Assembly (NCBI GenBank): GCA_963789265.1
Contig: CAWBKB010000001.1
Coordinates: 512,001 to 576,000 of the forward strand
DNA length: 64,000 bases
Direction: 5' to 3'
From: an uncultured delta proteobacterium
GTDB taxonomy: Bacteria > Desulfobacterota > Desulfomonilia > Desulfomonilales > Desulfomonilaceae
The notes beneath the pieces are model-generated. The model did no database searches. It worked only from the letters and a program-made list of their open reading frames with translations, and was not told the origin of the DNA. Below, piece by piece: positions 12,153 through 27,690 of this stretch. The translations under genes were made by a program, and so were the position numbers. Numbering within the stretch: position 1 is the stretch's first letter; each line of letters starts with the position of its first letter.

Positions 12153-14314
12153 TTGTCTGACCTCCCTTCAGGCGACTCCGGATAAATCTTGCAGAGAAAT
12201 GTTCTGATGGCGGTTCCGCCCATCGCAGGATCGCAGTTCTCGTAACTGTTGTCTGTTAGCATGTTTATGTTGGACTCCTGCCATGAACGTTGAAGATCTT
12301 TGTACTCCGGAAACCACCAACCGTGCTGCGCGAAGATGACTCGGGGGTCCATCCCGGCGAACAACTTGGCACGCTGTCGGATCTTGCCCTTTGGGGATTC
12401 AATAGTGACCCAGTCTCCGTCCTTTATGCCTTCTTTCTGCGCAGTTTCCGGGTGAATCTCAACAGTCGGGTCCTTGTGAAGCTCTCGAAGTACCGGAATT
12501 TGACGACCTTCGGAACAGAAAAATCCTGGTATTCGCCGCCCGGACACCATTATGTAGGGATATTCCTCGTAAAGTTCGGGAGCGCTGTACGGGCTGCCGG
12601 GCGCTTCATGATACTGGGGCACCGGATCGTATCCCATTTTATCCAAAACAGTGGAGTAAAGCTCCAGCTTCCTCGTCGGCGTGGAAAAACCCTCAGTTCG
12701 GTACTTTCGGTGTTTCACTTCTCCACGGATGTAATCCATTTCCTTGAACTGCTTCCACGTTATGCCCATAGGTTCGAGTATGTAATCAAGACCTTGTTCG
12801 AAATCGGGCCACCAGTATTCTCCAATTCCGACCCGGTTTGCCAGATCGTTGAGCATGTCATGATCGGATCGGCACTCTCCTACCTGGATGGCCTTACGCC
12901 TCGGCACAATGTATCCGTGACGTTTCCAGAAGTCCGCGATGTAATCCATTTCGAGCCACGTGGCTGCCGGGAGGACGATGTCCGCCAGAGCCGCGGTCGG
13001 GGTTATGAAGAAGTCGGAGACCGCCATGAAATCAACTGCTTTAAGTGCCTTATACACTTCCGCTGAATCAGCCCTGGTCAAGATTGGATTAGTGCTCAGG
13101 AGGAACAGCATCTTTACCGGATAAGGCTTTTCCTGAAGGATCGAGTCCCAAATCTTTTTGGGATTGAGTATTGCAAAGCGAGACCCTAACCTGAATTGGT
13201 CACCTCCGAGACGCTTTGTGAAATCTTCCCTGGCAAGCATCCCATGAGCACCGAATGATCCCACATTCCTTACATTGGGAGTCTGGAACAACATCTGCCC
13301 GCCAGGGACGTCCAGGTTGCCCGTGATAGCCATCAATGCAATCAGGCTGCGATCGTTATTCGTGAGATTGGCTTGAATCTCTACGCCGACCCCCCACTGG
13401 ATAGCCGCGGGCTTGGTCGTGGCAAACAAACGGGCCGCTTCTGCAATCTTTTCCTTGGGGACCCATGTGATCTGCTCTACCCGGTCCAGGGGCCATTCCT
13501 TGGTTCGCTGCACAAATTGCTCCCACCCGTGCGCGTAATTCTCGACAAATTCTTTGTCATAGAGCCCTTCCTCTATGATTACGTTGCACATTCCCAACGC
13601 CAAAGCGGCATCGGTGGTGGGCCTCAAACGAAGCCAAATGTTGGCTCGGGCAGCAATTCTGGTAAGCCTCGGGTCTATGGCGATCAGCTTGGCGCCTTCA
13701 TCCAGAGCCACTGAGAAGGGCTCGCCCTTGTATGAGTCGGGATTGCTGAAGACCAGATTGTTCCCCCACACCATGATGCATCTGGGCTTGTTTTCATAGT
13801 CCACGATCGGGTTGGAGCCGCACGTACTGATGGTTGTGGCAAGTCTTGGGCCGTAGCAGAAGTGGCCCGCTGTCAGCACATTTGGGCTGCCAAGCGTGTT
13901 GGCGAACCGATAGATAACGGCCTCATTGTCTCTGCCCGTGCCATAACCCATTACAATGGATTCAGCACCGTGACTTTCTTTGTAACGAAGTATTCTCTCA
14001 GCGATTGTGTTCAGAGCCTCATCCCATGAGATGCGCTCCCAGTTGCCGCCTCCCTTTGGCCCTATTCGCTTCACGGGGTAGGTCAGACGATCCGGATGAT
14101 GCGCCAATTGAATCGAGCCGATCCCCTTTGCGCACAACGTGCCGTGGTTTATGGGGCAATCCGGGTCACCGGCTATTTTCTTGGCCTTGCCGTCTTTGAC
14201 GTAAACCAGCACCCCACAGCCACCGTGACACATTCTGCAAGCACTTTTGACGACCGAGTCGTAGCCGTAGACCTCCATCTCACGAGCAACGTTCGAATAC
14301 TTAAATTCTGCCAC
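12149..14314 (-). CDS. Cytoplasmic molybdopterin (Mo/W-bisPGD) oxidoreductase, acetylene hydratase-like subfamily
   Basis: CRMCHGGC..CAKG Fe-S motif, WERISWDEA, GSPN..FC, ADIVLPAATWLE, C-terminal cofactor-binding domain; no Tat signal. Confidence 0.88.
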   Translation of the reverse strand: MAEFKYSNVAREMEVYGYDSVVKSACRMCHGGCGVLVYVKDGKAKKIAGDPDCPINHGTLCAKGIGSIQLAHHPDRLTYPVKRIGPKGGGNWERISWDEALNTIAERILRYKESHGAESIVMGYGTGRDNEAVIYRFANTLGSPNVLTAGHFCYGPRLATTISTCGSNPIVDYENKPRCIMVWGNNLVFSNPDSYKGEPFSVALDEGAKLIAIDPRLTRIAARANIWLRLRPTTDAALALGMCNVIIEEGLYDKEFVENYAHGWEQFVQRTKEWPLDRVEQITWVPKEKIAEAARLFATTKPAAIQWGVGVEIQANLTNNDRSLIALMAITGNLDVPGGQMLFQTPNVRNVGSFGAHGMLAREDFTKRLGGDQFRLGSRFAILNPKKIWDSILQEKPYPVKMLFLLSTNPILTRADSAEVYKALKAVDFMAVSDFFITPTAALADIVLPAATWLEMDYIADFWKRHGYIVPRRKAIQVGECRSDHDMLNDLANRVGIGEYWWPDFEQGLDYILEPMGITWKQFKEMDYIRGEVKHRKYRTEGFSTPTRKLELYSTVLDKMGYDPVPQYHEAPGSPYSAPELYEEYPYIMVSGRRIPGFFCSEGRQIPVLRELHKDPTVEIHPETAQKEGIKDGDWVTIESPKGKIRQRAKLFAGMDPRVIFAQHGWWFPEYKDLQRSWQESNINMLTDNSYENCDPAMGGTAIRTFLCKIYPESPEGRSDK

Positions 14315-14316
14315 GT

Positions 14317-15183
14317 TTAATCCTCCTGTTGTGCAGCCGGCTCCTGCGACGTCCGGAACATTGACGTATTTGCGTGTCCCGCGCCTACGTGCGGGGCGCC
14401 TCCAATCAATTCGGAAAATCTCTTTGCCGCGGCCGCGATATCGGCGCCGAATTCCTTCGCGAAATCCTGCGGAAAAGTTCCTACAATCGCCATCGATCCC
14501 ATGAGCCGTCCCCCGGGACCGAACACCGGCGAAGCCACCGCATTAATGCCGATTTTCATTTCGCCCAGATCCAAAGCAAACCCGGTTCTTCGGCATTGGT
14601 CCAATTCCTGCTCAAGGCGATGCAGATCAAACCTGGAGGGACCGCCGTGGAAATAGGGCTTCGAACTGCCAAGGACCTTTTTTCGTTCGGTATCGGGCAG
14701 GAAGGCTACTATCGCCTTTCCATGAGCGCCCCAAGCAATGGGGAATCTGTGCCCGAGTCTGATGGTCAATCCGATTTCCTGCGTACCTTCGTCTCTGGCG
14801 ACAACGAACACGTGATTTTCTGAGACCACCCCCAAGAAAGCAGTGCTGTTCGTTTTGCATGAAAGCTCTTGAAGAAAAGGGGCCGCAACCTCTCGTATGT
14901 CGAGACCGGTCAAGACTCTGTTGGCCAAGAAAAGCAGACCGAGTCCCAGAGAATAAGTCTTGTCATTGGGGGATTTTTGGACAAATGCGAACTGTTGCAA
15001 GGTGTTCAGGATAGAATATCCCTTGCTCTTGTGAATGCCCACTTCGTTGCAAATCTCGGTCAAACTCATCTTTGCAACGGGGGCTTGAGCGAGCGCGAGC
15101 AAAATGCGTGAAGCCTGCTCCACCGCAGGGACAACCGAGGAATATTGGGGTTTGGCTGGAGCAGACTCTCTCTTCGATGCCAT
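14317..15183 (-). CDS. IclR family transcriptional regulator
   Basis: VPAVEQASRIL..HTH, GAHGKAIVAF, GINAVASPVF. Confidence 0.92.
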   Translation of the reverse strand: MASKRESAPAKPQYSSVVPAVEQASRILLALAQAPVAKMSLTEICNEVGIHKSKGYSILNTLQQFAFVQKSPNDKTYSLGLGLLFLANRVLTGLDIREVAAPFLQELSCKTNSTAFLGVVSENHVFVVARDEGTQEIGLTIRLGHRFPIAWGAHGKAIVAFLPDTERKKVLGSSKPYFHGGPSRFDLHRLEQELDQCRRTGFALDLGEMKIGINAVASPVFGPGGRLMGSMAIVGTFPQDFAKEFGADIAAAAKRFSELIGGAPHVGAGHANTSMFRTSQEPAAQQED

Positions 15184-15198
15184 TCGGAATCCGTTAAG

Positions 15199-15259
15199 GT
15201 TCGTTGTACAGAATACGATTCTTTATAGAGAACCTAGCAGACGCACTTGCGCTTGTCAA
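15199..15259 (-). promoter_or_regulatory. Sigma70-type promoter with a tandem palindromic operator (candidate IclR autoregulatory site)
   Basis: Minus strand TTGACA(15259-15254)-N17-TAGGTT(15236-15231); GTTCGTTGTACAGAAT-acg-ATTCTTTATAGAGAAC inverted repeat at 15199-15233. Confidence 0.6.
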
Positions 15260-15428
15260 CACAATCCCTGACCCATAATCCCCCAACAAATGAGATGGTG
15301 AATTATGGTTTTATGATCATATCGCAGACCGTACCGTCATGGGTTACCTCTGGCAGTTCTTGAACCGATGTGTGGAATGGAGCGGGAACTATTAGCAGTT
15401 CCCGAAAGTACTCGCGGATTGACATAAT

Positions 15429-15528
15429 GGGTGCCACTGCTGGCTTGACCAGCAGTGCTTCTTATGGCGATTTTCACAAGTTTGCTCTGAAGGGAGTCGC
15501 ACTGCTGGTCGAGCCAGCAGTGGCACCC
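15429..15528. repeat. REP-like doublet, 30 bp inverted repeats
   Basis: 15429-15458 and 15499-15528 match at 29/30 as reverse complements; each arm is itself palindromic. Confidence 0.8.
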
Positions 15529-15539
15529 GCGGTGGTATT

Positions 15540-15878
15540 ATGGACGACATCCTCATCCTTGCCCCGGCACAATGGAAACTCAAGAAGACCATACGGGTGT
15601 TGAACCAGACATTCAATGAGCTGAAGTTGGAAAAACACCCCGACAAAACCGCTATGGGGCGAATCGAGAAGGGATTCGATTTCCTCGGGTATCACTTCAG
15701 TCCGCAAGGACTGTCTCTCGCACAGAAGACCATCGACAACTTCGTCGAAAAAGCTCTCCGGCTTTATGAGCAAGAGCCGCCCCATCGAAGGATGAAGCGG
15801 CTCGGAGAGTACAGCCATAGGTGGGTTGGCTTGCAGCGTTGGTTTAGGCGTTCTCACCTTATGATGTTATGGGAATGA
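15540..15878 (+). pseudogene. C-terminal fragment of a reverse transcriptase
   Basis: MDDILIL (xMDD active-site remnant), LEKHPDKT, GFDFLGYHF; N-terminal RT domains absent. Confidence 0.8.
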
Positions 15879-17229
15879 GACCGAGACACCTCCCCCCGGC
15901 CCGAATGTTAGTGGGGGTGGGACAAAACCGTTGACCAGGAAGATGCCGTTACTAATATGTGCTCTCGCCTCCAGAAACAAGCGGGCCGGTTATACAGCCG
16001 CTGCGGGCGCTGATGTCGGTGAGCACTTCCAGACGGAAGTTCGGCTCAGTGGCTCCTGATGATATTAGGACGGAATCAAGGAAGCCTCCGGAGAGGAGAT
16101 TGCACCAACAAAATGTTGCAGTCGATGTCGTTACGGGCGGGATCGGATCTGTTAGCGGAGGGTTAGGATATAAATGCTCAAACGCGATTGTCGGGGCGAT
16201 GAGAACGCTTCCCTTAAGGTTAGGGCATACTGCAGGATTCGTACGTGCGAGCACAACCGCTTCCGGCTGATGCCAATACCGCTTGACCTTCAACCCCAAC
16301 AACCTTCTCAAGTCTCGGGGGCTCCTGAACACCGGCTCAGGCATGGTGAATGGGCTCTCGAAACTCAGCAGATTCTCCAACTGGAAGCCTACGTTCACGA
16401 ATCCGCCCACCGTATTGTAATAGCCGTCGATCCGGTCGTGCCCGTATTCGTATCTCAAAGTAAAGACGCCGTCTCTCGTAGTGAGGTCCGCGCCGCCCCG
16501 CCAGCCGTACACCGCGGTCCCGATATCAAACTGGTACCCGATGAGCTTGAGCCGCAAATCCAGAGACCGATTGAACAATGCATGTGAATAGCCGGCCTCA
16601 ACGTCAAAGCTATTCCCCTTGTTCCTGAAGGCATTGATGAGGACATCTCTATTGAAGAGGTTCCCGTACCAGTTGAAGTTCAGGTCAATGGCATCGTCTC
16701 CGGCAACGTTCGCTGCCATTTCCAGCCCGACTCCTCCGGATGAATACCACGTGTTGAACAGACGGGAAGAATCGTAGAAGCCGTTCACTCCCAGAAAGGT
16801 GTTCGTGCCCAGCATCGTGCGGTAACCGCCGCCGAAAGACAAATCGACCCTATTGTTCGTTCCCCCGGAAGATCTCTTCCAGAAATTCCAGCCTTCCGCA
16901 TGAGCCTCTCCGAACAGCACGGAATCACGGCTCACGCTAAAAGGGAGAACATAATCCGCAGTGAATCGCCCGGTACTCACCCTGTTGCCGAAATAGTCCA
17001 GGAAACCGAGTTCCAGGTTAGGGATTTTGGGGAGAAAAGGCGCAAGCATGCCACTGGACAGGGGTATGGCATCGCTCTCCCGAGAACATCCGCAATCGTT
17101 CGATGGATTGCTCTGACCGGGAAGTTCCGGGAGACCTTGTGCGTCCACAAAGGTGGAGAGAGTGCAGGCGAAAAGAAATAGGAAAGGCAGGACGAGCAGA
17201 ATCCACGCGGAAGGACGCGATTCCTCCAT
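15867..17229 (-). CDS. Inverse autotransporter (intimin/invasin-like) beta-barrel protein; ORF stops at 15952, possibly extending to 15867 via a frameshift
   Basis: Signal peptide; SFGGGYR, FLGVNGFYD, GVGLE, NFNWY strands; alternative frame gives ..TFGPGGGVSVSFP*. Confidence 0.7.
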
Positions 17230-17711
17230 GACATACCTCCTTTACCTCAAAGCCCTTGAAGCACAAGACTCGGCAGCACATCCCCAAACGTCAATCAGGG
17301 GGAGTCTCAAGAGCCAATAATGCAGAAATCACAAGAAATTCAGTGGAATACTACCTGAAAGCTGCGGCAGGAGTCAAGAGAATTCAGGGGTTCGGCCGGA
17401 AGTATGCACTTACGAGGGGGCGAGAGCTTGCGAAGCATGTCATTGCGAGGGCGACAGCCCGTGGCAACTTCACAAACACCGCCACTGGAGAGTGCTTTCC
17501 CGCGGGACGCGGGATTGCACTCCTCGCAATGACAGTTTCTCGCGAATGTCCGTTCCCCCGCGTGAGTGAATGCTTACACTTCGGACTGAAGACTGCTCAC
17601 AATTCGTGAGGAGGCATGTCACACGGAGAGTTCAGAACCGTATAAAATGGTTATCCCCGATAGCTGTGACATCCCGAATCTTGTGTCCCGCCGAACGTTT
17701 ACCGACAACGA

Positions 17712-18080
17712 TCATAGAGCCGATCTCACAGCCACTTGGAATATCTTTTTGTGATAGCTCACGGTGGCCCGTATTCTTAATTCTTTCGGATGGGCGTTTT
17801 GCCACCGCACTATCCTGGCATACTGGGCCCTGGCTCTTGACAGCAGCATCTCAAATCGGCCGGAGAAACGAGGCTTGGGCCGAATTTTTTCAGTAGGCCG
17901 TATCTGCTTTTTCCTCTGTTGCTCCAATTCTTGTGCAGCTTCCTTCAATGCCTGATCGAAGATAACCGCCTCCAGAGACTCCTCAGAGGCCAAGGCCGCG
18001 GCTTGAGAGACGCTTGCACCGTACAGGAATAGGCACAACACAATTAGCCACCTTGCAATTATGTGCTTCGAGGATCCCAT
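17712..18080 (-). CDS. Secreted hypothetical protein
   Basis: Signal peptide WLIVLCLFLYGASVSQA; acidic then basic helical body. Confidence 0.55.
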   Translation of the reverse strand: MGSSKHIIARWLIVLCLFLYGASVSQAAALASEESLEAVIFDQALKEAAQELEQQRKKQIRPTEKIRPKPRFSGRFEMLLSRARAQYARIVRWQNAHPKELRIRATVSYHKKIFQVAVRSAL

Positions 18081-18162
18081 AACCCCACTCCCACTCACTA
18101 ATTATGCTCTCTAAGATTCGTGAAAGTCAAAAAAGATTCAGAGTATTTTCGAGAGGTAATGA

Positions 18163-18562
18163 TTCACCGCGGAGATCGCAGAGACCGCGGAGAATTCAGT
18201 TCTGCTGCGAGTCTATCTGCCGGAACACTGCAAGTACTCGTTTGAGGCAATGAGGGAAATTAGGGCCTGACTTTACTCGTGCGCGCCTCACGTTGCCCAA
18301 ACTAATTCCCATTCGCGTTCAAGAAGGTGACACGGTATTTCCGGTAGGGGCGGGTTTCAAACCCGCCCTTACAGGTCGTCACGCCCGTGTACGCGGGAAT
18401 CTGTAGGGCCGCCCTACCCCCGTCCGGATCGGCGTCCGGGGTGACGAATGGGATCAAGATACTGACCCCGCTTGGCTCTATTTCGGAGTACCACTCGTTT
18501 GAAGGGGCATTGGTATATGCTACCCTTTTCTTCTCCGCGGTCTCCGCGTTCTCTGCGGTGAA
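18163..18562. repeat. Composite repeat bounded by 32 bp inverted repeats; related pairs at 26248-26427 and ~29996-30177
   Basis: TTCACCGCGGAGATCGCAGAGACCGCGGAGAA versus the reverse complement of 18531-18562 (29/32); nested GTAG REP. Confidence 0.75.
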
Positions 18563-18598
18563 CTATTGCCTTGGATAATTACGGGCAGGCTTTATTAT

Positions 18599-20674
18599 TC
18601 ACAAACGCCGCTCGACAAGGATGACGGAAATCTCTCCCTCTCCGTACTGTTCCAGGTAGCGGCGATCCACTCCCACACAATGATCTATGTAGCAGCATCG
18701 GGCTTTAAGACATGCTTTCGGCGTCTCATTGTGCCCCATGTTGTCGGCATTGCTCACCATGTCATCGGCTTCTCGCCTCTTGATGCGCACTTCGTTCCGG
18801 CAGTTCCCAATATGTGGCAGGTGAGGAGCAATACAATAAGGCACGTTGTCAAGAATTGTCAGCGGATATTCCTGCGAGTTTATAGTGGACAATTTTTCTT
18901 TTAGAGAAGAGAGTCGGCACATGCGGCCTCTGTTGACATAAGCATTTCCATCCCATTCGGGCAGACACAGGCAATGGGCAGTAGTGCCGGCGAATCCCAG
19001 AATTTTATCCATGAGCCATTCTATCTCAGGCAGATTAAGTTCGTTAAGGCATGTGTTGACGCTAAGCCGTTCGGGTGAAACGTCATTTATCAGGCTGACA
19101 GCTCTGTACGCTTCCACAAAGCTGCCTTTCCGCCTGACGATTCGGTCGTGTGTTTCTCCGACCCCGTGCAGGGAAACCCAGAAATTCTTCATTCCCGCAT
19201 TTGTAAGTGAGAAAACCAGCTCTTCGGTTATTCCGAACCCATTGGTAAACATGAACAAGTTGTCGATTCCGTGTTCTTTTGCGAAACGAACGTAGTTCAC
19301 AAGCGAGGGGTTCAGAGTGGGTTCACCCGCGCCTGTAAAGAAAAGGGTCTTGATCCCTGCGCGGCTGGACTCCTCAATGAAATCGAATACTTCTTGATCC
19401 AAGTTAGGCGGGTTCTTACTCCTATCGTATGCCGGTGCGCAAAAGATGCAGTTGTTGGTGCACTCGAAACTTGAAAATACTACCGCCCCGGGTTCAGGCC
19501 ATCCCCAGACCAATGATCGCGATTTATCTGCACGGGTCGCGGTCCAGCCCTGCCATTTTTTCGGGTTGGTGAGAACCCGGTCTTCAACGAACGCGAATAC
19601 CTTTTTGTAAGTTTCACAGTACGGATCGGGGTGATCAGGGCTGCCTTCAGCGCTCATTGCTCTTACCGGACAGCCGCCATTGCAAAGTGGCAAATATTTG
19701 CAATCAAGGCATTCTGAGTTGCCGATCAAATTGGCCGTCCGCTCGGCGAGTTTCATTCTCATCGGCGATGTCAACAGCATGCCGAGATCATCGGATTCGA
19801 GAAGATTGCCAAAATTCCGGTCAGGATAGGAGCCCATCCACGCATCGCATTGACTCACTTCACCGCCGGGCCCGACGCAGAAAAAGCCATTTACGCAGTT
19901 TGGGCAGAAGAAGCACGGAATCTTTGCCGCAGCATCCCCCAATGTTATCCGTTCTACGATTCCCTCGTAAGGATCCAAGCGAACTCCGTCATCCCCGGAG
20001 AAGTAAACATCAAGCAGACCGACTAAGAAATCGCCCAGCATCGATGGGTCCAGGAACAATTGATCCGCCAGATGGGAAGCCGGTCCCGAGGCGAAGGGGG
20101 TATTCAATTGAATGCTCTTTAAGCCCAATTCATCTACGTAATACCGGTAAAAGTCCGAAGGGGACACTGAGAGAGTCTGTTTGTTGGGGACCGATATCAC
20201 GGACGCAGACAGGCCTCTGGAGCGAGCAATTCTGTACCTGTCAGCCCAGTGCTCATTATATGAATCGCCCGACAGGCCGCGGAATCTCCGGTGTACATTG
20301 GGATAATCCAGGGACGACCCGACGGTTCCGTCAAAAAGTTCCCATATCACCGGGTCCCAAACGGGATCGTAATCCATGAGGTTGGTCTGCAAATAAAGTT
20401 TAATTTTCAGATTGTGATTTGACATGAACGATCTTATCATACGGCCCGCTGTCAGACACCACTCGGGAGATAGAACCGTAATTTCTCCACCTTGCCAGTA
20501 CACGTCGACACTCTTAACTCCGGAGCGCGAAAGATACGAAGATATGCGGCTGAAAACAGTTTCCAAGTCTTCGAGGGACATGCTTTCCCGAGTTCTTGGT
20601 TCGAAACAGTACGCACAATTACAATTGCAATGGAAAGTAGGCACAAATATTATACTTACTTGAGGGCCGAACAT
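18599..20674 (-). CDS. Protein with two radical SAM domains (rSAM-SPASM fused to a second rSAM with a Cys-rich tail)
   Basis: CNCNCAYC and WQGGE; SPASM C..C..GEVSQC, CLDCKYLPLCNGGC..PYC; second CTNNCIFC and GAGEPTL; CLKARCCYIDHCVG tail. Confidence 0.88.
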   Translation of the reverse strand: MFGPQVSIIFVPTFHCNCNCAYCFEPRTRESMSLEDLETVFSRISSYLSRSGVKSVDVYWQGGEITVLSPEWCLTAGRMIRSFMSNHNLKIKLYLQTNLMDYDPVWDPVIWELFDGTVGSSLDYPNVHRRFRGLSGDSYNEHWADRYRIARSRGLSASVISVPNKQTLSVSPSDFYRYYVDELGLKSIQLNTPFASGPASHLADQLFLDPSMLGDFLVGLLDVYFSGDDGVRLDPYEGIVERITLGDAAAKIPCFFCPNCVNGFFCVGPGGEVSQCDAWMGSYPDRNFGNLLESDDLGMLLTSPMRMKLAERTANLIGNSECLDCKYLPLCNGGCPVRAMSAEGSPDHPDPYCETYKKVFAFVEDRVLTNPKKWQGWTATRADKSRSLVWGWPEPGAVVFSSFECTNNCIFCAPAYDRSKNPPNLDQEVFDFIEESSRAGIKTLFFTGAGEPTLNPSLVNYVRFAKEHGIDNLFMFTNGFGITEELVFSLTNAGMKNFWVSLHGVGETHDRIVRRKGSFVEAYRAVSLINDVSPERLSVNTCLNELNLPEIEWLMDKILGFAGTTAHCLCLPEWDGNAYVNRGRMCRLSSLKEKLSTINSQEYPLTILDNVPYCIAPHLPHIGNCRNEVRIKRREADDMVSNADNMGHNETPKACLKARCCYIDHCVGVDRRYLEQYGEGEISVILVERRL

Positions 20675-20677
20675 AAT

Positions 20678-21520
20678 CTACTCCGCGACCTCTTCCGCTT
20701 TAGCAAGGTCATCGGCGATTTCCTTCGCGTTCACTTTGATCGCATTAAAAACTTCGAGAAAAGGTCCGCAGTCGAAGTCAGTGTCAACAAAACGAAGGTA
20801 GCCTTCACATAAATCGAACCTCTCGCAAGAAACGCATTTGGAACCGGACAAGACAAGGTCCTTTTTGCGGTTTATCAATTGCTTGTAAAGATCGGATTCT
20901 TCATCAATTTGCAGACCACCGGAAACCTCACCCAAGAACTTCCCGGCGCGGGCAAGTCTGGCAGAAGCCGTAACTCTTCCCAATTCGTCGACATAGAGGA
21001 ATTCCGACGGAGATTCAGGATAAAGTTTCGGGAGCGCCAACACGTTTCCTCTCAAACAGGCGCTGATCATGGAATGGAAAAAATCAACCGGAACCTGCAC
21101 ATGAGTGTCGTGCAAATAATAATTCAGTACGGACAACAGTTCACTTGTATCTGACAGCTCTTCAAGGTCCATCGTGACAGGGACCATAGCCGAGGCCGCG
21201 ATCTTCACACCTTGCAGGAGCCCTTTGTCCACATTAATAAGAGCTTCGAGTGAGAACCGATCGACGAGCCAGGTATTTGTGTAGAGCTGAGGAGCGCACT
21301 TTGGATGCAATTTGAGCCGAATCGGAAGCTGCAGCGGAAGAGCCGACAAACTATGCAGGTTCTCACTCGGATATTCCAACTCCACTCCCTTTACTCGATC
21401 GCCCAGCGTTTTATATGTGTTCACGATATCTCCGCAATTCCCTGAACGCAGGACGATATCATGAGAGTCGACTTCAGCAGCCAATCTCGGAGGAATACTT
21501 ATCAATGCTGAATTATGCAT
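20678..21520 (-). CDS. SPASM-like domain protein lacking a radical SAM CxxxCxxC motif
   Basis: ATG at 21520 overlaps the upstream stop (ATGCATAA) after GAGG; FLYVDELGRV..FLGEV, CVSCERFDLCEG..DC. Confidence 0.75.
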   Translation of the reverse strand: MHNSALISIPPRLAAEVDSHDIVLRSGNCGDIVNTYKTLGDRVKGVELEYPSENLHSLSALPLQLPIRLKLHPKCAPQLYTNTWLVDRFSLEALINVDKGLLQGVKIAASAMVPVTMDLEELSDTSELLSVLNYYLHDTHVQVPVDFFHSMISACLRGNVLALPKLYPESPSEFLYVDELGRVTASARLARAGKFLGEVSGGLQIDEESDLYKQLINRKKDLVLSGSKCVSCERFDLCEGYLRFVDTDFDCGPFLEVFNAIKVNAKEIADDLAKAEEVAE

Positions 21521-22601
21521 CAACTGCCTCGAAAAATTCCTTGTACCCTTCACACCAGATAGTCTTTCGCAGCCGCCCGGAAGCTGCCGCGCAGCCCCCG
21601 GCGCAATATTTCCACCAATTACAGGAACCGCACTCGTTTTGCGTGATCAACTTTCTCCTTTGGGAACGCCAAAACGCGTCGGGGTGAGATAGTAACTTGT
21701 CAAGCGGCTCAGAGGTTATGTTGCCGATTTTACCGGACGCGATGTCGAGGAGTCTCACGCACGGATAAACGTCACCTTCCGGCGAGATAGCCAAAGTAGG
21801 CTCGCAACAGTTCAGAGACTCAGAGTACGTCCGAGTGGAATCAGAGTCAACTGACGAAATTTCTTCCCAATTTACGAACGGTTCGACGGGCAACGAACTA
21901 TCGTCCCCTTTCCATGCGCGGTGAACTTCTCTGAGAAAAAGCCCCCAGGATCGCGGGTCCAGACGGGCACCTTCGAACGTATTCGCGGGCTCTTCAAGAG
22001 GTATAAGAGTTAGGCTATCCACTCCCAGGTTCTTGAAATAGTAATAGATTTCCTTGCCACGGTCTATTGATCGACCGTGCACAACATACACCATTCCAAC
22101 GTGAAATCCGCGACTTCTGACAATCTCGAAGCCCTCATACCAACGTTTCAGATAAGAGTCCCCGTTCTTGAGCCTCCTATAGTCCTGGAACGGATCAAGA
22201 GAAGTCCCGATCCCGCCTCCATTCAGAAGCTCGGCCAGAGTGTCTGCAAGCCCTTCTGTTGCCAACGTCAAATTGGACTGCATTATGTGCATCGGGCTGT
22301 TCTTGAGGATCGTTCGGTTTAGCTCCAAGACCTTCTTGTAAAAGGGCTCGCCCATCAGCATGGGTTCTCCCCCATGCCATAGGATTGTCATGTGACAGCC
22401 CGGATTTCCTTCCATGTAATTCGCGAGATTTCGGAACGTGCATTCAACGAGGGCGGGATCGGCGATTTTCGGCCTTTCTGCGACATTGCAGTAAGCGCAC
22501 TTCCCGTTGCATTGGAGAGTCGGTTTGATAACAACTTCAATGCACTTGGGCGCTTCACAGTTATTTTCAGAGGTATATGCCATAGTCAGTGGAGCCGCCA
22601 A
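21513..22601 (-). CDS. Radical SAM/SPASM peptide maturase (anSME-like); alternative start ATG 22583
   Basis: KPTLQCNGKCAYC, WHGGEPML, QSNLT, CCEPTLAISPEGDVYPC, CGSCNWWKYCAGGC..WC. Confidence 0.9.
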   Translation of the reverse strand: MAAPLTMAYTSENNCEAPKCIEVVIKPTLQCNGKCAYCNVAERPKIADPALVECTFRNLANYMEGNPGCHMTILWHGGEPMLMGEPFYKKVLELNRTILKNSPMHIMQSNLTLATEGLADTLAELLNGGGIGTSLDPFQDYRRLKNGDSYLKRWYEGFEIVRSRGFHVGMVYVVHGRSIDRGKEIYYYFKNLGVDSLTLIPLEEPANTFEGARLDPRSWGLFLREVHRAWKGDDSSLPVEPFVNWEEISSVDSDSTRTYSESLNCCEPTLAISPEGDVYPCVRLLDIASGKIGNITSEPLDKLLSHPDAFWRSQRRKLITQNECGSCNWWKYCAGGCAAASGRLRKTIWCEGYKEFFEAVDA

Positions 22602-22759
22602 TTTGACGCTATTTCCTCAACGGGGCCGGCGGCGGAGATGATCGGCATGAGGTCGGTGCAGTACAATCCTTATAGACTGAACCCTGCCCTGGTTACCTGG
22701 GCACAGGGCAAACAAGAAAGGGATGGACCGGCCCGAGGGCCACTAGCGCAATTTCCGCT

Positions 22760-22791
22760 CCTCTCCTGATTCGCGGGCAAATCAGGAGAGG
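22760..22791 (-). other. Perfect 12 bp stem-loop between the precursor and first maturase gene
   Basis: CCTCTCCTGATT-8nt-AATCAGGAGAGG with no U-tract on the minus strand. Confidence 0.7.
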
Positions 22792-22833
22792 AAGCATGCT
22801 GTCGCTGGTCGTGAGCCTGCAACCCCCACCAGA

Positions 22834-23187
22834 CTACCAATTACCCCACACACGGCGGTGCCGCCGCCGCCAGGGCCTGTTGCCCCACACACGGCAGCCG
22901 CCGTTACCCCACACGCGGCATCCATACCACCGCCTACCGCCGTTACCCCACACTCGGCAGCGCAAGAACTGAGATTCCATGGACTCGTCGTTTGTCCCCT
23001 CCTGGTCTGGGAGACCTTCGCGGGTCGCACCCGGTTCCAACGATTCCCTCGGTCCTTCGTCGGAGCCGGATGCTTCGGAAATCCCCAGGACAGCAGTGGC
23101 CACCACTATCGACGACCATTTGCCGAGACTCGTGAGAAATGATCTCCTGCTTAGAGTCTCGTCGTCTTTCTTGTTCTTGTCGTCCAT
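22834..23187 (-). CDS. Putative RiPP precursor (117 aa) with twin-arginine signal and four RVWGN repeats
   Basis: GGAGGA RBS before ATG 23187; SRRSFL plus hydrophobic stretch; acidic linker; core CRVWGNGGRRWYGCRVWGNGGCRVWGNRPWRRRHRRVWGNW; directly upstream of rSAM genes. Confidence 0.85.
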   Translation of the reverse strand: MDDKNKKDDETLSRRSFLTSLGKWSSIVVATAVLGISEASGSDEGPRESLEPGATREGLPDQEGTNDESMESQFLRCRVWGNGGRRWYGCRVWGNGGCRVWGNRPWRRRHRRVWGNW

Positions 23188-23348
23188 TTTATCTCCTCCA
23201 AACGAAACCAAAACAATCGGTTAATCTGAATGAATTTTCCTGTGCGCACATCGGCCGGTCCTGGAAACACCCGGCCCACTCAATCACTAATTCTCCAACC
23301 CAAGAGCAACTTCGTGCAAGGCCGTTCACCCTTAAAAGAAGCCCCTGG

Positions 23349-23834
23349 CTATTTCCCCGGTGGAGGCGGTTGCTCGGGGAACGAGAAATGGGACTGAATC
23401 AGGAGCCATTTGCCGTCCTTCTTCTCAAGCACTCCCGACCATAGACCCATTTGCTGAAACTTGTCTTCCCCGGTATCGACGTCGAACAACACCTCGGTGG
23501 CAAACCACCCCACGTCATCCTTAGACCCGACCGACGTCCATTTGTACTGTCCCTTTACCGATTTTACTTCCTTTAGACTGCCCTCATAAGCCGCTCTGAC
23601 CTGGTCCGTGCCTACGTAGCGCCCTTTTTCGTCGGCTTCAAAGAAAACCACGTTAGCTTCTGGCGCAATCATCTTCATTATTGCGTTCACGTCCTTCTTC
23701 GAATAGGCCGCTTGAAATTGAGCGAGGAAGTTTTTGATCTCTTGGTCGGTCTTGGAATCTGCCGTTGCGACTGTCGTCGCCCCGATTGTAATTGCCGTCG
23801 CGATACTCAGCACCAGTAGAATTGCACTTCGCAT
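23349..23834 (-). CDS. Secreted SnoaL-like/NTF2-fold protein
   Basis: Signal peptide; AAYSKKDVNAI, WSGVLEKKDGKWLLIQSHFSFP. Confidence 0.85.
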   Translation of the reverse strand: MRSAILLVLSIATAITIGATTVATADSKTDQEIKNFLAQFQAAYSKKDVNAIMKMIAPEANVVFFEADEKGRYVGTDQVRAAYEGSLKEVKSVKGQYKWTSVGSKDDVGWFATEVLFDVDTGEDKFQQMGLWSGVLEKKDGKWLLIQSHFSFPEQPPPPGK

Positions 23835-24208
23835 AATTGCCTGCCCCTTAATTTCGTGAAACGCAGCGAAAAACTTCTATCATTATGCAGAACAACCATA
23901 CTAGTTCTTTTGTAGATTGCCGGGAAGGTATCTGTCAAGAAGAATCAGTCCGTGAGTGTGACGGGAGCCGGCAGGAGCAGCTCATGGCAGGACGTGTCCT
24001 CTCCCGACAATTTCGAGTTCCGCGCGGGGCCGGACTACTATCGAACGTCCCTCCGGGAGGCTTGGTATGTAAGCCCCATGGAGGCGATTGAAAAATGGCC
24101 GGTGCCTCAGCGCCGGCTGACACCCTTGAATCCTTCGGCACGTGGCCGCATCTAATTTAAATGCAATGACAAATTGAGCTTTAAGAGATTTGATCTGGAG
24201 AATGAAGC

Positions 24209-24856
24209 ATGGAAATTAATCGAAAACTGAGCATATTATTGGTCCTGGTGGCCGTATCATTCGCCGTGACCACAGTATCGGTTTTGCCTGCGTGGGCGGC
24301 CACCGGCAAGTCCAAACAGGCCTCTGTAAAGGCCAAGAAACGGCATTTGTCCTACAGGGCGAGGCGGATAAAAAAAGTCAACGGCTCCTATATTCCGCAA
24401 GCGCAGCCGCGAACCGTTGCGAGTGCTCCTGCCACGGTCTGTTATGGAAGTTGGCAGCAATCCTTGTATGGGCCGGTCTATACATCATGGTGCCAAGCAG
24501 CAACCGCTTCCAGTCAAGGCTCCGGACAGGCTGAAGGCTGGGCCGCACCGGCACGATCGTCCGGGAGACAAAGCGGGGCAGCACCCCCGGCCGGTGGATA
24601 CGCTCCCCCACCCCAGCAGGTAAATGTCATTAGCCCGCCAGCAAGCGTCTGTTACAGCGGTTGCGTTCCTTATTGGACCGGTCAGGTTTACTCATCGTGG
24701 TGTCAGCCGGCCACCGCCTACAACGCTAACTCCGAACAAACAACTAACTGGGCAGTCCCGGCTCAAACGTACAGAACTCAGAGCTATGCGGCCCCTCAGG
24801 CCGGTCAACCCGGTACTGTCTGCAATGTTGGCAGTTGGCTGCCTTGTTGGTGGTAG
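24209..24856 (+). CDS. Secreted Cys/Trp-containing repeat protein
   Basis: GGAGA RBS, signal peptide ..LPAWA, basic segment, two ~60-70 aa repeats plus a partial third. Confidence 0.7.
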   Translation: MEINRKLSILLVLVAVSFAVTTVSVLPAWAATGKSKQASVKAKKRHLSYRARRIKKVNGSYIPQAQPRTVASAPATVCYGSWQQSLYGPVYTSWCQAATASSQGSGQAEGWAAPARSSGRQSGAAPPAGGYAPPPQQVNVISPPASVCYSGCVPYWTGQVYSSWCQPATAYNANSEQTTNWAVPAQTYRTQSYAAPQAGQPGTVCNVGSWLPCWW

Positions 24857-25160
24857 ACATTGCGGTCAGGTCTTGATTCTTGACCTCGTCTTTTCGCGCT
24901 GCACTGACTTGCTCACTGTTGAGTAGAGGAGTTGAACCTGCGCGGCGACCTCCGTGAGGCAAAATGCAAGACTTGTCCCCAGCCGAAACTCGTTGGTCTA
25001 GATCGTGGAGGCCACGAAGTCCGGAAGCTGATCGACGCGCTTTGACCAGGGTTTTACAGTCTGTAGGGACCGCGAAAGGTTGATTGGGAAGAATATGACA
25101 TGTCGTTGATATGAACGATTTCCCTGGATTATAGAAGAAGCGGGAACTTCTTATGCCCAA

Positions 25161-25373
25161 TCAGTTCCCCTCTTTCTTGTCTTCCTTGTCTTTGCTTACA
25201 AGAGCGACAACAGCCCCAACCGCTACAGCTGCAACTGTTAAAGGTACAGCTACCGTTGCAGCAGCAGCAGCCACAGCAGACCCCGCAGCCGCTAAGCCCG
25301 CCGTAGCGGCACCTGAAACAATAGCCCATCCTCCCATATGACGTGCGAAGCGTCCCAGCCCCTTGAGTCCCAT
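25161..25373 (-). CDS. Small Ala/Gly-rich hydrophobic protein (70 aa)
   Basis: GGAGGGG RBS before ATG 25373; long Ala/Val stretch and charged tail. Confidence 0.6.
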   Translation of the reverse strand: MGLKGLGRFARHMGGWAIVSGAATAGLAAAGSAVAAAAATVAVPLTVAAVAVGAVVALVSKDKEDKKEGN

Positions 25374-25648
25374 GGTTTCCCCCTCCAATGAAACTTTGTG
25401 GTCAAATAAGCCCTATTATTCAATTATACTATTTGCCTCCGTGCCATGTCATTATGTTTCTTCTCTACCAAAACTATACGATTTCTTCTGAAAACTGAGC
25501 AGTGCATGGGGTCAGACCTTGTTTCTTGACATCTTCTTTTCGCGCCGCCCAACCTACTCCCCGTGGGGCAACGGAGTCCAAGCTGCGCGGCAATCTTTCT
25601 GCTGCAACAAGCAATCTGACCCCATCTGTTTAGGTGTGGTTGCCGCTT

Positions 25649-26116
25649 CTAGTCGATTTGTTCCACCAAATAGTTTTGGATTCCCATTTGTGAGATCTGG
25701 TCCTGTTGAGCTTCAAGCCAGTCGATATGGCCTTCCTCTTCTTGCAGAATGTGCTCGAGCAATTCCTTTGTACCGCCGTCTGCGAGCTCGGCCGAAAGCT
25801 TGATCCCGTCGTTGTATGACTGAATGGCATCATATTCGGACTGCCAATCGTTCTTGTGCTGTGTTTCAACTTCTGCACCGATATGTATTTCTTTTAGTTT
25901 ACTGACAACAGGGCGTCCTTCAAGAAAAAGGATGCGTGCGATCAGCTTTTCCGCGTGTTTCATCTCGTCGATTGCACGTTTTTCGTCTGCCTTGTGGAGG
26001 CGTTCGTATTGCCAATTGTCACACATCTCAGCATGAACCATGTACTGATTGATTGCCGTCAATTCGTCCGCGAGTAGATCGTTGAGCTTTTCGATAATTC
26101 TTTCATTCCCTTTCAT
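25649..26116 (-). CDS. bfr: Bacterioferritin
   Basis: MKG..LNDLLADELTAINQY, IDEMKHAE, EEEGHIDWLE, GIQNYL. Confidence 0.96.
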   Translation of the reverse strand: MKGNERIIEKLNDLLADELTAINQYMVHAEMCDNWQYERLHKADEKRAIDEMKHAEKLIARILFLEGRPVVSKLKEIHIGAEVETQHKNDWQSEYDAIQSYNDGIKLSAELADGGTKELLEHILQEEEGHIDWLEAQQDQISQMGIQNYLVEQID

Positions 26117-26722
26117 TTCGGCCCCTTTCTGTAATTTTAGTTGGGCTTGCTCCCCCGAAAATTGAGTTTTTCGCCCCGATCTCAGGCTACCTCACCGTAG
26201 TGCCGCCAGTCAATGATCTTTGGCTATTGCCCTTGAGATAGTATTTCAACGCGGAGAATGCGGAGAACGCGGAGAATTCTCCTTTTTGCGGACGCCTGCC
26301 GATCCGGCACGGCGCATTCCGGTCTGTCTCAGTGACGGCAAGACCGAGCCGACTGAATCCGCCGGTTACTCATATAAAGCTCGAACGAGTTGGCTTTCGT
26401 CTCTGCGTTCTCCGCTCCCTCAGCGGTAGATCCTGATCGGCCGCTGAACGGATGCGTTCCGTCCGAAACTTTTGTGGGAACATCTCCGGCATTCGGGTTT
26501 CTTACATTGCTAAATGCACGGACCCGTTGATTGATACGATGGTGAAAAAAGAAAGGGCGTTCCGAACCAATACACTTGGGAATGTCCGATATCGCGACAC
26601 TCACTTGAACGTGCACCGGCATCAAAGTGGATCCACGGCTCCGGAATAAATTACGCCGCGGAGGAAAGACTATGAGAGGAACAGGAGAATTGATAATGCA
26701 GCCGCAAAGGGGAAGCTCTGAT

Positions 26723-26992
26723 ATGTCTACTTTTCGAAGGTCCAGCGCAGACTATGAACAGAGATTGAGCCAGTGGGGATGCCCGAATTGTGATTTCTTC
26801 GAGCAAAGGATTTTCAGAAGGCGCCGGTCTTCGCGTGAAAGCGACGCTTACGCGATTTGTCGGTGTTCCGGGGAGCCGGTCGACCTAATTTGGGAAGCTA
26901 CCGTGTGCCCTAAGAGCGCCGATTCCGAAAGAAGTGGACATCGTAGCCGATTCAGCCGCGTCCGACGGCGAGACCGCAGAGACGCAGCCTGA
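26723..26992 (+). CDS. Small Cys-containing hypothetical protein (start uncertain)
   Basis: CPNC..CRC..C pattern; several candidate ATGs with purine-rich upstream sequence. Confidence 0.35.
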   Translation: MSTFRRSSADYEQRLSQWGCPNCDFFEQRIFRRRRSSRESDAYAICRCSGEPVDLIWEATVCPKSADSERSGHRSRFSRVRRRDRRDAA

Positions 26993-27037
26993 CACGCGAC
27001 GGTGAGGCTTGGAGCCTGCACAAGGAGGCTGAACCCC

Positions 27038-27280
27038 CTATAAGGAGCCCGGCTCGGTCCATCGGAACACGACTAGTCCTTCTTTGTCTCTAAAGGACCC
27101 GATTATGATGAGGATCAGGTCGATAAGTGCCCAGATCGTAAATCCTCCGAAAGTTACAAGCATCAAAATTCCGGTTCCGATTTTACCTACGTAGAATCTG
27201 TGAACCCCAAATACTCCGAAGAGCAGGCACAGTATCATGGCCACGAGCCTGGACTTGGGCGAAATGACTGAGTTATCCAT
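27038..27280 (-). CDS. TM2 domain membrane protein
   Basis: KSRLVAMILCLLFGVFGVHRFYVGKIGTGIL..WALIDLILI. Confidence 0.92.
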   Translation of the reverse strand: MDNSVISPKSRLVAMILCLLFGVFGVHRFYVGKIGTGILMLVTFGGFTIWALIDLILIIIGSFRDKEGLVVFRWTEPGSL

Positions 27281-27353
27281 GTTTCCGACCTCTTTTCTTT
27301 GACTATTCCCCATATGGGCAACTCTTAACCTATAAAGCGTTCACGGGGTCTTA

Positions 27354-27498
27354 GGCTTGGCGGTCAGGGACACCAGCCTGAGGAGCATAGGCTTCAGTGG
27401 AGCGGTCCCGCGCTGAACGTGGGATTGTCCGCCATCTGAGGGACACCAGCCCCACCGGGATCATAGCACAGGTCCCGCGCGATACGGCATGGCGGTCA
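27354..27498. repeat. Tandem duplicated structured element
   Basis: AGGGACACCAGCC..CATAG..GGTCCCGCGC at 27366-27413 and 27439-27480; GGCWTGGCGGTCA at both flanks. Confidence 0.6.
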
Positions 27499-27690
27499 CT
27501 CACTATGTACGCTTCTCAATTCCGAAGATCAGTTGTTGATAACCTTCTCTCAAGAGCCAATCTAACGATTATTTAATCCTCTGTTAATGTAAATCCAACC
27601 GGACAACCATAAACTGCATCGGACCACTTTGCGCGTCAAAAGCCGAGACGACAAGATAAAGTGGCGTTGTTGAGGCAATGCGGAGGAACA

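Follow-up and report, generated by a model that had tools for sequence, protein, structure and literature searches.

We describe a four-gene cluster, A-B-C-D, in a stretch of 64,000 nucleotides (hereafter the window) from an uncultured member of the Desulfomonilaceae. We read this cluster as a self-contained maturation cassette in which radical S-adenosylmethionine (rSAM) enzymes would cross-link a small repeat protein in the cytoplasm, the product then being exported to the periplasm via twin-arginine translocation (Tat). We consider this reading probable, with considerable room for doubt. The analysis was computational throughout, by sequence, profile and predicted-structure comparison; it covered gene content, folds, motifs, conservation, co-occurrence and domain fusions, and every chemical step, the role of C, export and the function of the product are proposed on that basis. 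The four genes lie on the minus strand at positions 18599-23187, co-oriented and tightly packed, with an overlap of 8 bp between B and C and 3 bp between the stop codon of C and the start of D.

22834..23187, minus strand: gene A, the precursor, 117 aa plus stop codon; open reading frame (ORF) with Shine-Dalgarno sequence and ATG, kept in 8 of 8 related loci
23071..23187, minus strand: Tat-type signal and leader, residues 1-39 of A; read from the sequence, with an inferred cleavage site
22837..22968, minus strand: core of A, residues 74-117; CRVWGN three times and RRVWGN once
21513..22601, minus strand: gene B, an rSAM/SPASM enzyme ('B-type'), 362 aa; Pfam Radical_SAM and SPASM
20678..21520, minus strand: gene C, a predicted degenerate rSAM/SPASM-fold partner, 280 aa; AlphaFold2 (AF2) model with VIA-align fold match, hhalign
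18599..20674, minus strand: gene D, 691 aa, a fusion of DN and DC; two CX3CX2C motifs, two separate Radical_SAM stretches
19535..20674, minus strand: DN, the rSAM/SPASM half of D, residues 1-380; NCBIfam scores, invariant SPASM Cys
18599..19534, minus strand: DC, the second rSAM half of D, residues 381-691; NCBIfam, AF2, Foldseek

A scan of the contigs of related genomes returned eight loci from metagenome-assembled genomes (MAGs), and all eight keep the order A-B-C-D and the same position of the B/C overlap, the identity of C ranging from 50 to 88%. Three of these loci (L002, L004 and L006) are frameshifted, as is typical for long-read assemblies, the frameshift in L004 affecting A, and L007 holds two precursor genes. 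In L007 and L008, which are the most distant (C identity 50-51%), the flanks are unlike those of the window while A-B-C-D is kept; the conserved unit is therefore A-B-C-D. None of the four genes reaches the cut-off of any NCBIfam family, GrrM/OscB included, and no gene for a peptidase, an ABC exporter or a recognition element (RRE) of ribosomally made, post-translationally modified peptides (RiPPs) adjoins the cluster among the ORFs scanned. An initial annotation made from the letters of the window had described four co-oriented genes, the last three translationally coupled, without such neighbors and with a Tat-type leader on the precursor, and had suggested a search for conserved synteny. 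Every countable detail of its gene layout is correct, the missing neighbors and the leader (see below) are borne out by the present data, and the synteny it asked about exists.

A starts with the ATG at 23187, seven nucleotides downstream of a GGAGGAG box, and ends with the stop codon at 22834-22836; it matches no family in Pfam or NCBIfam at E<=0.01. Residues 13-18 of its leader read SRRSFL (continuing as SRRSFLT) and are followed by the hydrophobic segment LGKWSSIVVATAVLGI / GKWSSIVVATAVLGI and then by SEA/S, the slash marking the predicted cleavage site. A twin-arginine consensus, a moderately hydrophobic h-region and an AxA-like site are thus combined in a genome that also encodes TatC (244.8 bits), and the leader is probably a Tat-type signal, for which export is predicted. 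Among nine aligned precursors, S13, R14, R15, F17 and L18 are invariant, as are G22, K23, W24, S25, S26 and I27 (GKWSSI) and two of the CRVWGN units, C90-N95 and C98-N103; the acidic spacer at residues 40-73 is variable. The core is basic, rich in Arg and Trp and strongly cationic, and contains three Cys and one His. It presents four W-G-N units, a motif of the triceptide class, beside the rSAM/SPASM enzymes B and DN. At the DNA level, a repeat of 23 nt occurs in four copies at 22835-22959 within A. Against the GrrA/OscA1 model (TIGR04260, cut-off 31 bits), A gives no match at E<=1, and related WxN precursors score 10.6-20.7 bits, which is a weak resemblance.

The start of B is ambiguous, being either TTG at 22601 or ATG at 22583, six codons further in. 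The protein, present in a single copy in the genome, carries CX3CX2C and the full set of seven SPASM cysteines, and matches Pfam Radical_SAM (41.1 bits) and SPASM (27.4 bits), both above cut-off. Its best NCBIfam scores are those for DynA (138.8 bits, cut-off 450), TIGR04083 (137.5, cut-off 300) and anSME (135.4, cut-off 349), while GrrM/OscB (TIGR04261) gives 58.6 bits and misses the cut-off of 310; the best sequence match in the PDB is anSMEcpe (5e-19). In D, CX3CX2C occurs at C16/C20/C23 (DN) and at C405/C409/C412 (DC). The whole protein scores 117.6 bits on DynA (NF041298, cut-off 450) and 104.9 bits on anSME (TIGR03942, cut-off 349.45), missing both cut-offs. DN is 25% identical to B, and its best families are TIGR04083 (115.6 of 300 bits) and DynA (111.4 of 450), with GrrM/OscB at 51.7 bits, again short of 310; ten of its ten SPASM cysteines are invariant among 18 full-length homologs. 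For DC, the best NCBIfam family is HxsC4 (77.7 bits, cut-off 500). This half carries a conserved C-terminal auxiliary site of four cysteines (C614, C655, C660 and C666), and its AF2 model, with a predicted local distance difference test (pLDDT) value of 94.4, finds SkfB (6efn, E 9.8e-12, 18% identity) as the best Foldseek match, followed by viperins, BlsE and DesII. A relationship of DC to CrpC (TIGR04463) was dropped, as the 79.8 bits obtained with whole D fell to 32.9 with DC alone. A cofactor subunit of the cysteine tryptophylquinone (CTQ)/QhpC kind was also dropped, there being no partner dehydrogenase adjacent and only 23.5-30 bits for QhpD.

C belongs to no Pfam and no NCBIfam family. 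Among 5.8 billion clustered proteins it has 24 close homologs, none of them named or with a Pfam family, and those that are labelled all come from Desulfomonilaceae or Thermodesulfobacteriota MAGs. The protein lacks CX3CX2C, and C229, C232, C238 and C251 are its only invariant cysteines. With its AF2 model (pLDDT 72), Foldseek found nothing in the PDB at E<=1e-3 (best match SuiB, 3.3e-3), and the fold became clear only with VIA-align: the top eight of 48,161 chains are all of the rSAM/SPASM type (Z 9.9-12.7), led by ChlB (Z 12.7, root-mean-square deviation 3.9, 253 residues aligned) and anSMEcpe (Z 12.4, root-mean-square deviation 4.4, 254 aligned) and followed by TigE, CteB, PqqE, SkfB, BlsE and SuiB. 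Furthermore, hhalign matched a profile of 51 C-like proteins to the SPASM half of 21 B and DN enzymes with 96% probability (E 4.9e-9), aligning C229/C232/C238/C251 with C322/C325/C331/C353 in the SPASM motif of DN. By comparison with the anSME structure, the latter would be the ligands of the second auxiliary cluster. The match of C to the SPASM model itself (TIGR04085/PF13186) is 12.9 bits (E 0.11, cut-off 27) with four of the seven cysteines retained, and 12 of the 51 C-like proteins match this model weakly, none at cut-off. By its modelled fold, C is a complete, catalytically dead rSAM/SPASM-fold paralog, which probably retains one putative auxiliary Fe-S site; the initial annotation had seen a SPASM-only protein here, a description that is too narrow for a whole pseudo-rSAM fold. 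A complex prediction for C with A gave a score of 0.02 against a mark of 0.32; this is no answer and counts neither way.

A profile search for C-like proteins yielded 426 representatives at E<=1e-3, 227 at E<=1e-10 and six at E<=1e-30, and none of the 17 stand-alone representatives scanned belongs to an NCBIfam family. Of 401 genomes sampled from the phylum, 11 contain C-like genes; for the class the figure is 31 out of 122, for the Desulfomonilaceae 27 out of 69 others and for the genus all six others, with up to three matches, that is, paralogous systems, per genome. On these matches, the cluster in the window does not stand alone but represents a single branch within a far larger family. 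The modules also occur fused in every combination: DN-DC in 19 clusters of full-length D-like proteins (at least 56% identity), C-DC or DC-C in nine, DC-B in six and rSAM/SPASM-C in three, in addition to one C-methyltransferase and one HemN-like-C fusion. Because these fusions join three module types, they are good indirect evidence that C acts in a complex with both enzyme types.

To relate enzyme content to precursor type, 37 loci (the window, the eight related loci, L011, and seven and 20 loci from genome scans), all from one class of one phylum, were classified by local profiles. A small Tat ORF lies directly upstream of the enzymes, its motif co-varying with the enzyme type, and SRRxFL together with an AxA-like site is a recurrent feature of the 38 listed precursors. 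The nine window-type loci (B, C, DN-DC) all have a precursor with CRVWG(N/H) repeats. Among the 14 loci with C and DN only, a Tat precursor is present in 12, and nine of these are dominated by aromatic-x-N/H repeats, namely 5-16 WxN, WHH together with WxN in L060 and YxN in L077; a Gly-rich W-x-N repeat is the sole conserved core feature of the DN-type Tat precursors in the relatives. The remaining precursors of this class are frameshifted (L067), poor in WxN (L068) or without WxN (L064), and no precursor was found in L022, where the contig ends, or in L023. The ten clear loci with C and B only have a precursor in eight cases, and all eight show Cys/Arg repeats, of the forms (RGC/CRG)n, (PRCG)n, (RRC)n, (GGWRC)n and (RC)n, with not a single WxN; these B-type precursors are very rich in cysteine (6-22 Cys in 20-92 residues). 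In the other two loci of this class, L024 and L063, no precursor was found. Mixed Trp and Cys/Arg cores occur in both loci with B, C and DN (L059 and L066), while L072 has C only and no precursor was found there. In the distant pair L076/L077, the enzymes score alike on B and DN (108 and 111 bits); L077 was counted with the C and DN class, and L076, the 37th locus, was placed in none. Thus, DN tracks WxN and B tracks Cys/Arg, and for this reason the CRVWGN unit and the gene set of the window (B, C and DN-DC) look like a hybrid, in which two simpler and widespread units, Tat-WxN with C and DN and Tat-Cys/Arg with B and C, are joined residue for residue. The triceptide-related WxN logic put forward in the initial annotation accordingly stands in so far as DN-type relatives adjoin Gly-rich W-x-N Tat precursors, although by comparison it is DN, not B, that would be the WxN enzyme. 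Membership of the enzymes in the GrrM/OscB type, which it cited for the chemistry, is not supported by the scores given above, with DynA, anSME and TIGR04083 all scoring higher while also far below their cut-offs.

The genome of the window contains a second locus of this family, L011 (G000 contig 7, 309000-327000; 7441-10119, minus strand), with C and a DN-type enzyme 57% identical to residues 1-364 of D, and without B or DC. Its precursor of 223 aa has a Tat leader, a His/Lys-rich spacer, six Cys-free (A/G)WxNxG units and three CRVWGNGG; transposase-like ORFs were noted downstream by eye. In a tree built from one C per locus, with hits shorter than 180 residues dropped, the window-type C proteins form a clade (nine rows) beside the C of L011 with a support of 97 in the Shimodaira-Hasegawa-like approximate likelihood-ratio test, and C proteins partnered with B are grouped elsewhere.

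Some loci are noteworthy in their own right. L064 (G426 contig 14, 9931-13906, minus strand) carries eight tandem precursor genes with the common leader NRR(E/Q)FFNGLGKWS and cores rich in His, Asp and Pro, located upstream of a DN-type enzyme and a protein of 1199 aa with a C-like domain. L076 (5044-5520) and L077 (4690-5124) come from a sister family, and their precursors combine densely spaced Y-x-N repeats with RRDAIKRISK, a Tat-like leader that lacks KWS. These precursors adjoin an extra rSAM protein of 332 aa, a C-like gene and an rSAM/SPASM fusion of 702-737 aa, possibly a Tyr-based version of the system. At L072 6218-8604, a C-like gene without an adjacent rSAM gene is followed by genes that, by eye, resemble those of an ABC ATPase and an ABC-2 permease. 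L024 (5932-11299) combines a B-type enzyme and C with an rSAM protein of 334 aa and has two family-9 glycosyltransferase-like genes downstream.

Taken together, these data suggest the following pathway. The Tat signal of A probably doubles as the recognition leader, and the C-terminal CRVWGN units would be modified in the cytoplasm by a multi-subunit radical-SAM machine. DN would most likely close each W-G-N into a three-residue cyclophane between Trp and C-beta of Asn, in the manner of triceptides and OscB; OscB is reported to join Trp C7 to C-beta of the Asn/Asp at i+2 on W-x-N/D (PMC11002830). For B, the most likely target is the Cys/Arg portion of the units, candidate products being a thioether or, by an anSME-type oxidation of Cys, formylglycine. 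The B-type substrates in the relatives consist essentially only of Cys, Arg, Gly, Pro or Asp, and a cyclophane is therefore excluded there. Precedents for a thioether are CrpC and QhpD: according to PMC13692751, SPASM enzymes put ranthionine links into Cys-rich proteins, as CrpC does and as QhpD does on a subunit of a periplasmic enzyme. DC, which resembles SkfB and HxsC, may add one further modification step, and C would serve as an inactive shared subunit with a structural, substrate-holding or electron-relay role. The product would then leave by the Tat pathway and lose its signal, so that a cationic, Trp/Arg-rich periplasmic protein of about 78 residues is left. As there is no protease or exporter, the end product is probably this protein and not a small diffusible peptide.

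Several points weigh against this proposal. The assignments of enzymes to motifs are correlations among related genomes, and the loci are not independent of each other. The pattern used in the precursor search required RR...KW[ST], which makes the conservation of the leader partly a matter of construction, and precursors outside this pattern may be missed (those of L076 and L077 read RRDAIKRISK, and none was found in five loci). L064, with a C fusion and DN, has eight precursors without WxN, L066 has no WxN in spite of B, C and DN, L068 has few, and L011 carries CRVWGN units without B or DC in cis. The four cysteines of C could hold zinc instead of an Fe-S cluster. No cyclophane-synthase model is matched at its cut-off by B or DN, and both score about as well on anSME as on such models. 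Tat normally carries folded proteins and may not accept so small a product. Finally, without a protease or an outer-membrane exporter, 'natural product' may be the wrong term, and perhaps a modified periplasmic protein is made.

Two alternatives concern the enzymes themselves. On the first, the cluster would simply belong to the known GrrM/OscB (GRRM) triceptides, with B as the enzyme that forms the cyclophanes on WxN and with the remaining genes as incidental neighbors. WxN is indeed present, TIGR04261 is among the weaker matches of B, and the related WxN precursors resemble GrrA/OscA1 weakly, but the 58.6 bits of B and 51.7 of DN are far from the cut-off of 310 and A has no TIGR04260 match. 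Moreover, C and D, which are translationally coupled, accompany A and B in each of the eight related loci, and B-type enzymes without DN adjoin Cys/Arg cores with no WxN in all eight loci with a precursor, which makes simple GRRM membership highly improbable. It is scarcely credible, too, that B and DN are anaerobic sulfatase maturases, or other maturases of a large enzyme encoded elsewhere, and that the small ORF is no substrate at all: anSME is among the top three NCBIfam matches of B and DN and supplies the best PDB sequence match, but at 100-135 bits the scores fall short of the cut-off of 349, the cassette contains no gene for a sulfatase, and a small Tat ORF is always directly upstream and co-varies in its motif with the enzyme type over the 37 loci. 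On scores and context, we reject both explanations.

Two further alternatives concern the role of the product, and the first of them is compatible with the maturation cassette that we favor. The product could act against phages in the way of the HXS system, as a basic repeat effector that blocks entry of phage DNA in the periplasm. Paired rSAM enzymes with a small partner maturing a repeat effector follow the same logic in HXS (PMC13128918); in addition, the best family of DC is HxsC4, the core is strongly cationic, and genomes hold several paralogous systems (up to three). We nevertheless regard this role as quite unlikely, with HxsB at 46-57 of 370, HxsC at 35 of 268 and HxsC4 at 78 of 500 bits, all far under cut-off, and with neither HxS repeats nor a peptidoglycan-binding domain. 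There is no mobile or defence-island context among the ORFs scanned, and PADLOC-DB 2.0 gives only generic matches to the viperin-type (pVip) rSAM core (B 19.2 and D 52.2 bits), while A, C and the SnoaL-like protein encoded next to A (see below) give no match. Unlikely as well, in our estimation, is a role as periplasmic metal-binding or metal-buffering peptides analogous to bufferins, in which the rSAM enzymes would shape or protect Cys, His or Trp ligands. The long His/Lys-rich stretch of the L011 precursor and the 6-22 Cys in 20-92 residues of the B-type precursors would suit such a role, and RiPPs with a signal peptide are known to act as periplasmic copper chelators (PMC11626156 and PMC12452194). 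However, the core in the window has only three Cys and one His, obvious ligands are lacking in pure WxN/Gly cores, the cluster in the window is not flanked by a gene for a metal transporter or sensor, and bufferins have MNIO enzymes, to which those of the cluster are unrelated.

Beyond the cassette itself, a more far-reaching interpretation is possible, which we put forward as tentative and on balance doubtful. The C-like pseudo-rSAM proteins and the RRxFL...GKWS leader would define a large unrecognized superfamily of periplasm-targeted, rSAM-cross-linked proteins, in which the Tat signal is the RiPP leader, C is a leader-holding or proof-reading subunit and the B-type reaction on Cys/Arg is an undescribed one; the cluster in the window would join two chemistries in one six-residue unit. 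In such a superfamily, C might shield the precursor from the translocase until it is modified, a task that redox-enzyme maturation chaperones perform for Tat substrates with cofactors. In support of the earlier suspicion that the architecture had not been described, no NCBIfam cut-off is reached and no matching system appears in the papers searched: in none of these is a native Tat leader, or a C-like partner, combined with the maturation of peptides by radical SAM enzymes, though the published triceptide similarity networks, which were not compared, might hold these enzymes. Should our proposal prove true, the export logic, with a Tat signal as leader and neither protease nor ABC exporter, would be new with respect to those papers. 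A recurrent non-catalytic subunit of the rSAM fold, fused to each enzyme type, would point to obligate hetero-complexes, the B-type clade would act on Cys/Arg/Gly substrates by a non-cyclophane chemistry that may be new, and the cluster in the window would be a natural case of two repeat chemistries merged in one unit. The B-type chemistry and the role of C are the candidates for something new in kind. For mining the C-like family, the rule that the enzyme type predicts the core motif should be helpful, and the 426 representatives suggest that this family, which is common in the Desulfomonilaceae (27 of 69 other genomes), is larger than that set. Candidate roles of periplasmic cross-linked repeat proteins are a phage barrier, metal buffering and envelope structure.

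Two further features belong to the immediate surroundings of A.

22756..22796, minus strand: RNA hairpin after the stop codon of A; folding compared with shuffles
23349..23834, minus strand: SnoaL_3/NTF2-like protein, 161 aa, probable accessory gene; Pfam SnoaL_3

The hairpin has a perfect stem of 14-15 bp directly 3' of the stop codon of A and no T-run. Folding of 22745-22833 gives -43.1 kcal/mol (z -4.36), a value not reached by any of 200 shuffles, and each of the seven related loci examined likewise has a stable hairpin between A and B, whose sequence agrees with that of the window only in L001. It is possibly a processing, attenuation or stabilization element, perhaps setting the ratio of precursor to enzyme. 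Rfam returned no match over 14000-28000, and a terminator scan found two candidates against 7.4 expected in shuffles, that is, nothing above background. The SnoaL_3-like protein (62 bits, cut-off 22) has an N-terminal Sec-type signal by eye. Its gene is directly upstream of the precursor in 11 of the 37 loci, four of them distant ones of both sub-types (L025, L027, L069 and L070), and is not found there in L007 and L008. It is likely a secreted periplasmic accessory, which may meet the product in the periplasm.

Further away in the window, a reverse-transcriptase fragment at 15540-15878 (plus strand; RVT_1 at 26.3 bits, short of its cut-off of 29.6) and an ORF of 425 aa without a Pfam family at 15952-17229 (minus strand) are both lacking where L001, the closest relative, is syntenic with the window, and are therefore likely an insertion remnant. 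An ORF of 215 aa at 24209-24856 (plus strand), with an N-terminal hydrophobic segment and no Pfam family, contains an internal duplication (tblastn self-matches at two offsets) and is kept in L001, L003, L004 and L006.

When compared with known systems, the family shares with OscA/OscB (GrrA/GrrM, TIGR04260/TIGR04261) an rSAM/SPASM enzyme of the anSME-like branch beside a Gly-rich W-x-N precursor. The cluster in the window differs in the Tat leader, the obligate pseudo-rSAM partner C, the invariant Cys-Arg-Val and two further rSAM domains, and the models of that family are not reached. GRRM systems are known from cyanobacteria, whereas the host of the window belongs to the Desulfomonilaceae. 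DynA, DarE and DarW produce Trp-based cyclophanes on short motifs without a Tat leader or a C-like partner, and DynA is the best or second-best NCBIfam match of B and DN, but with 111-139 of 450 bits. Dynobactin and darobactin systems have short non-repeat cores and dedicated exporters. The core of dynobactin A is WNSNVHSYRF (PMC10125368).

The pseudo-SAM/SPASM family TIGR04347 and the GeoRSP family TIGR04304 are not known beyond their bioinformatic definition. They parallel C in that the SAM cluster is lost and SPASM-type cysteines are kept beside an active rSAM enzyme, but C matches neither at E<=0.01, and both are absent among the 15 families listed for the 51 C-like members at E<=1. For the thioether enzymes SkfB, CrpC and QhpD, similarity is low (SkfB 18% identity, TIGR04463 32.9 bits for DC) and no RRE domain is present here; SkfB is nevertheless the nearest solved structure to DC, and these enzymes may serve as a model for B and/or DC acting on Cys. 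In HXS, HxsB (rSAM/SPASM), HxsC (rSAM) and HxsD are described as maturing the repeat effector HxsA (PMC13128918). This effector has its site of action in the periplasm, electrostatic binding to DNA has been suggested for it, and it is reported to be exported by a non-canonical route. The cluster in the window differs in its repeat, in having no peptidoglycan-binding domain, in that C is not TIGR03976 and in that the leader is an ordinary Tat signal, and the scores are low (HxsB 46.4 bits with B and 57.1 with D, cut-off 370; DC with HxsC 35.1, cut-off 267.9, and with HxsC4 as given above). Yet D resembles a fusion of an HxsB-like and an HxsC-like enzyme, and HXS is the nearest functional analog of the cassette.

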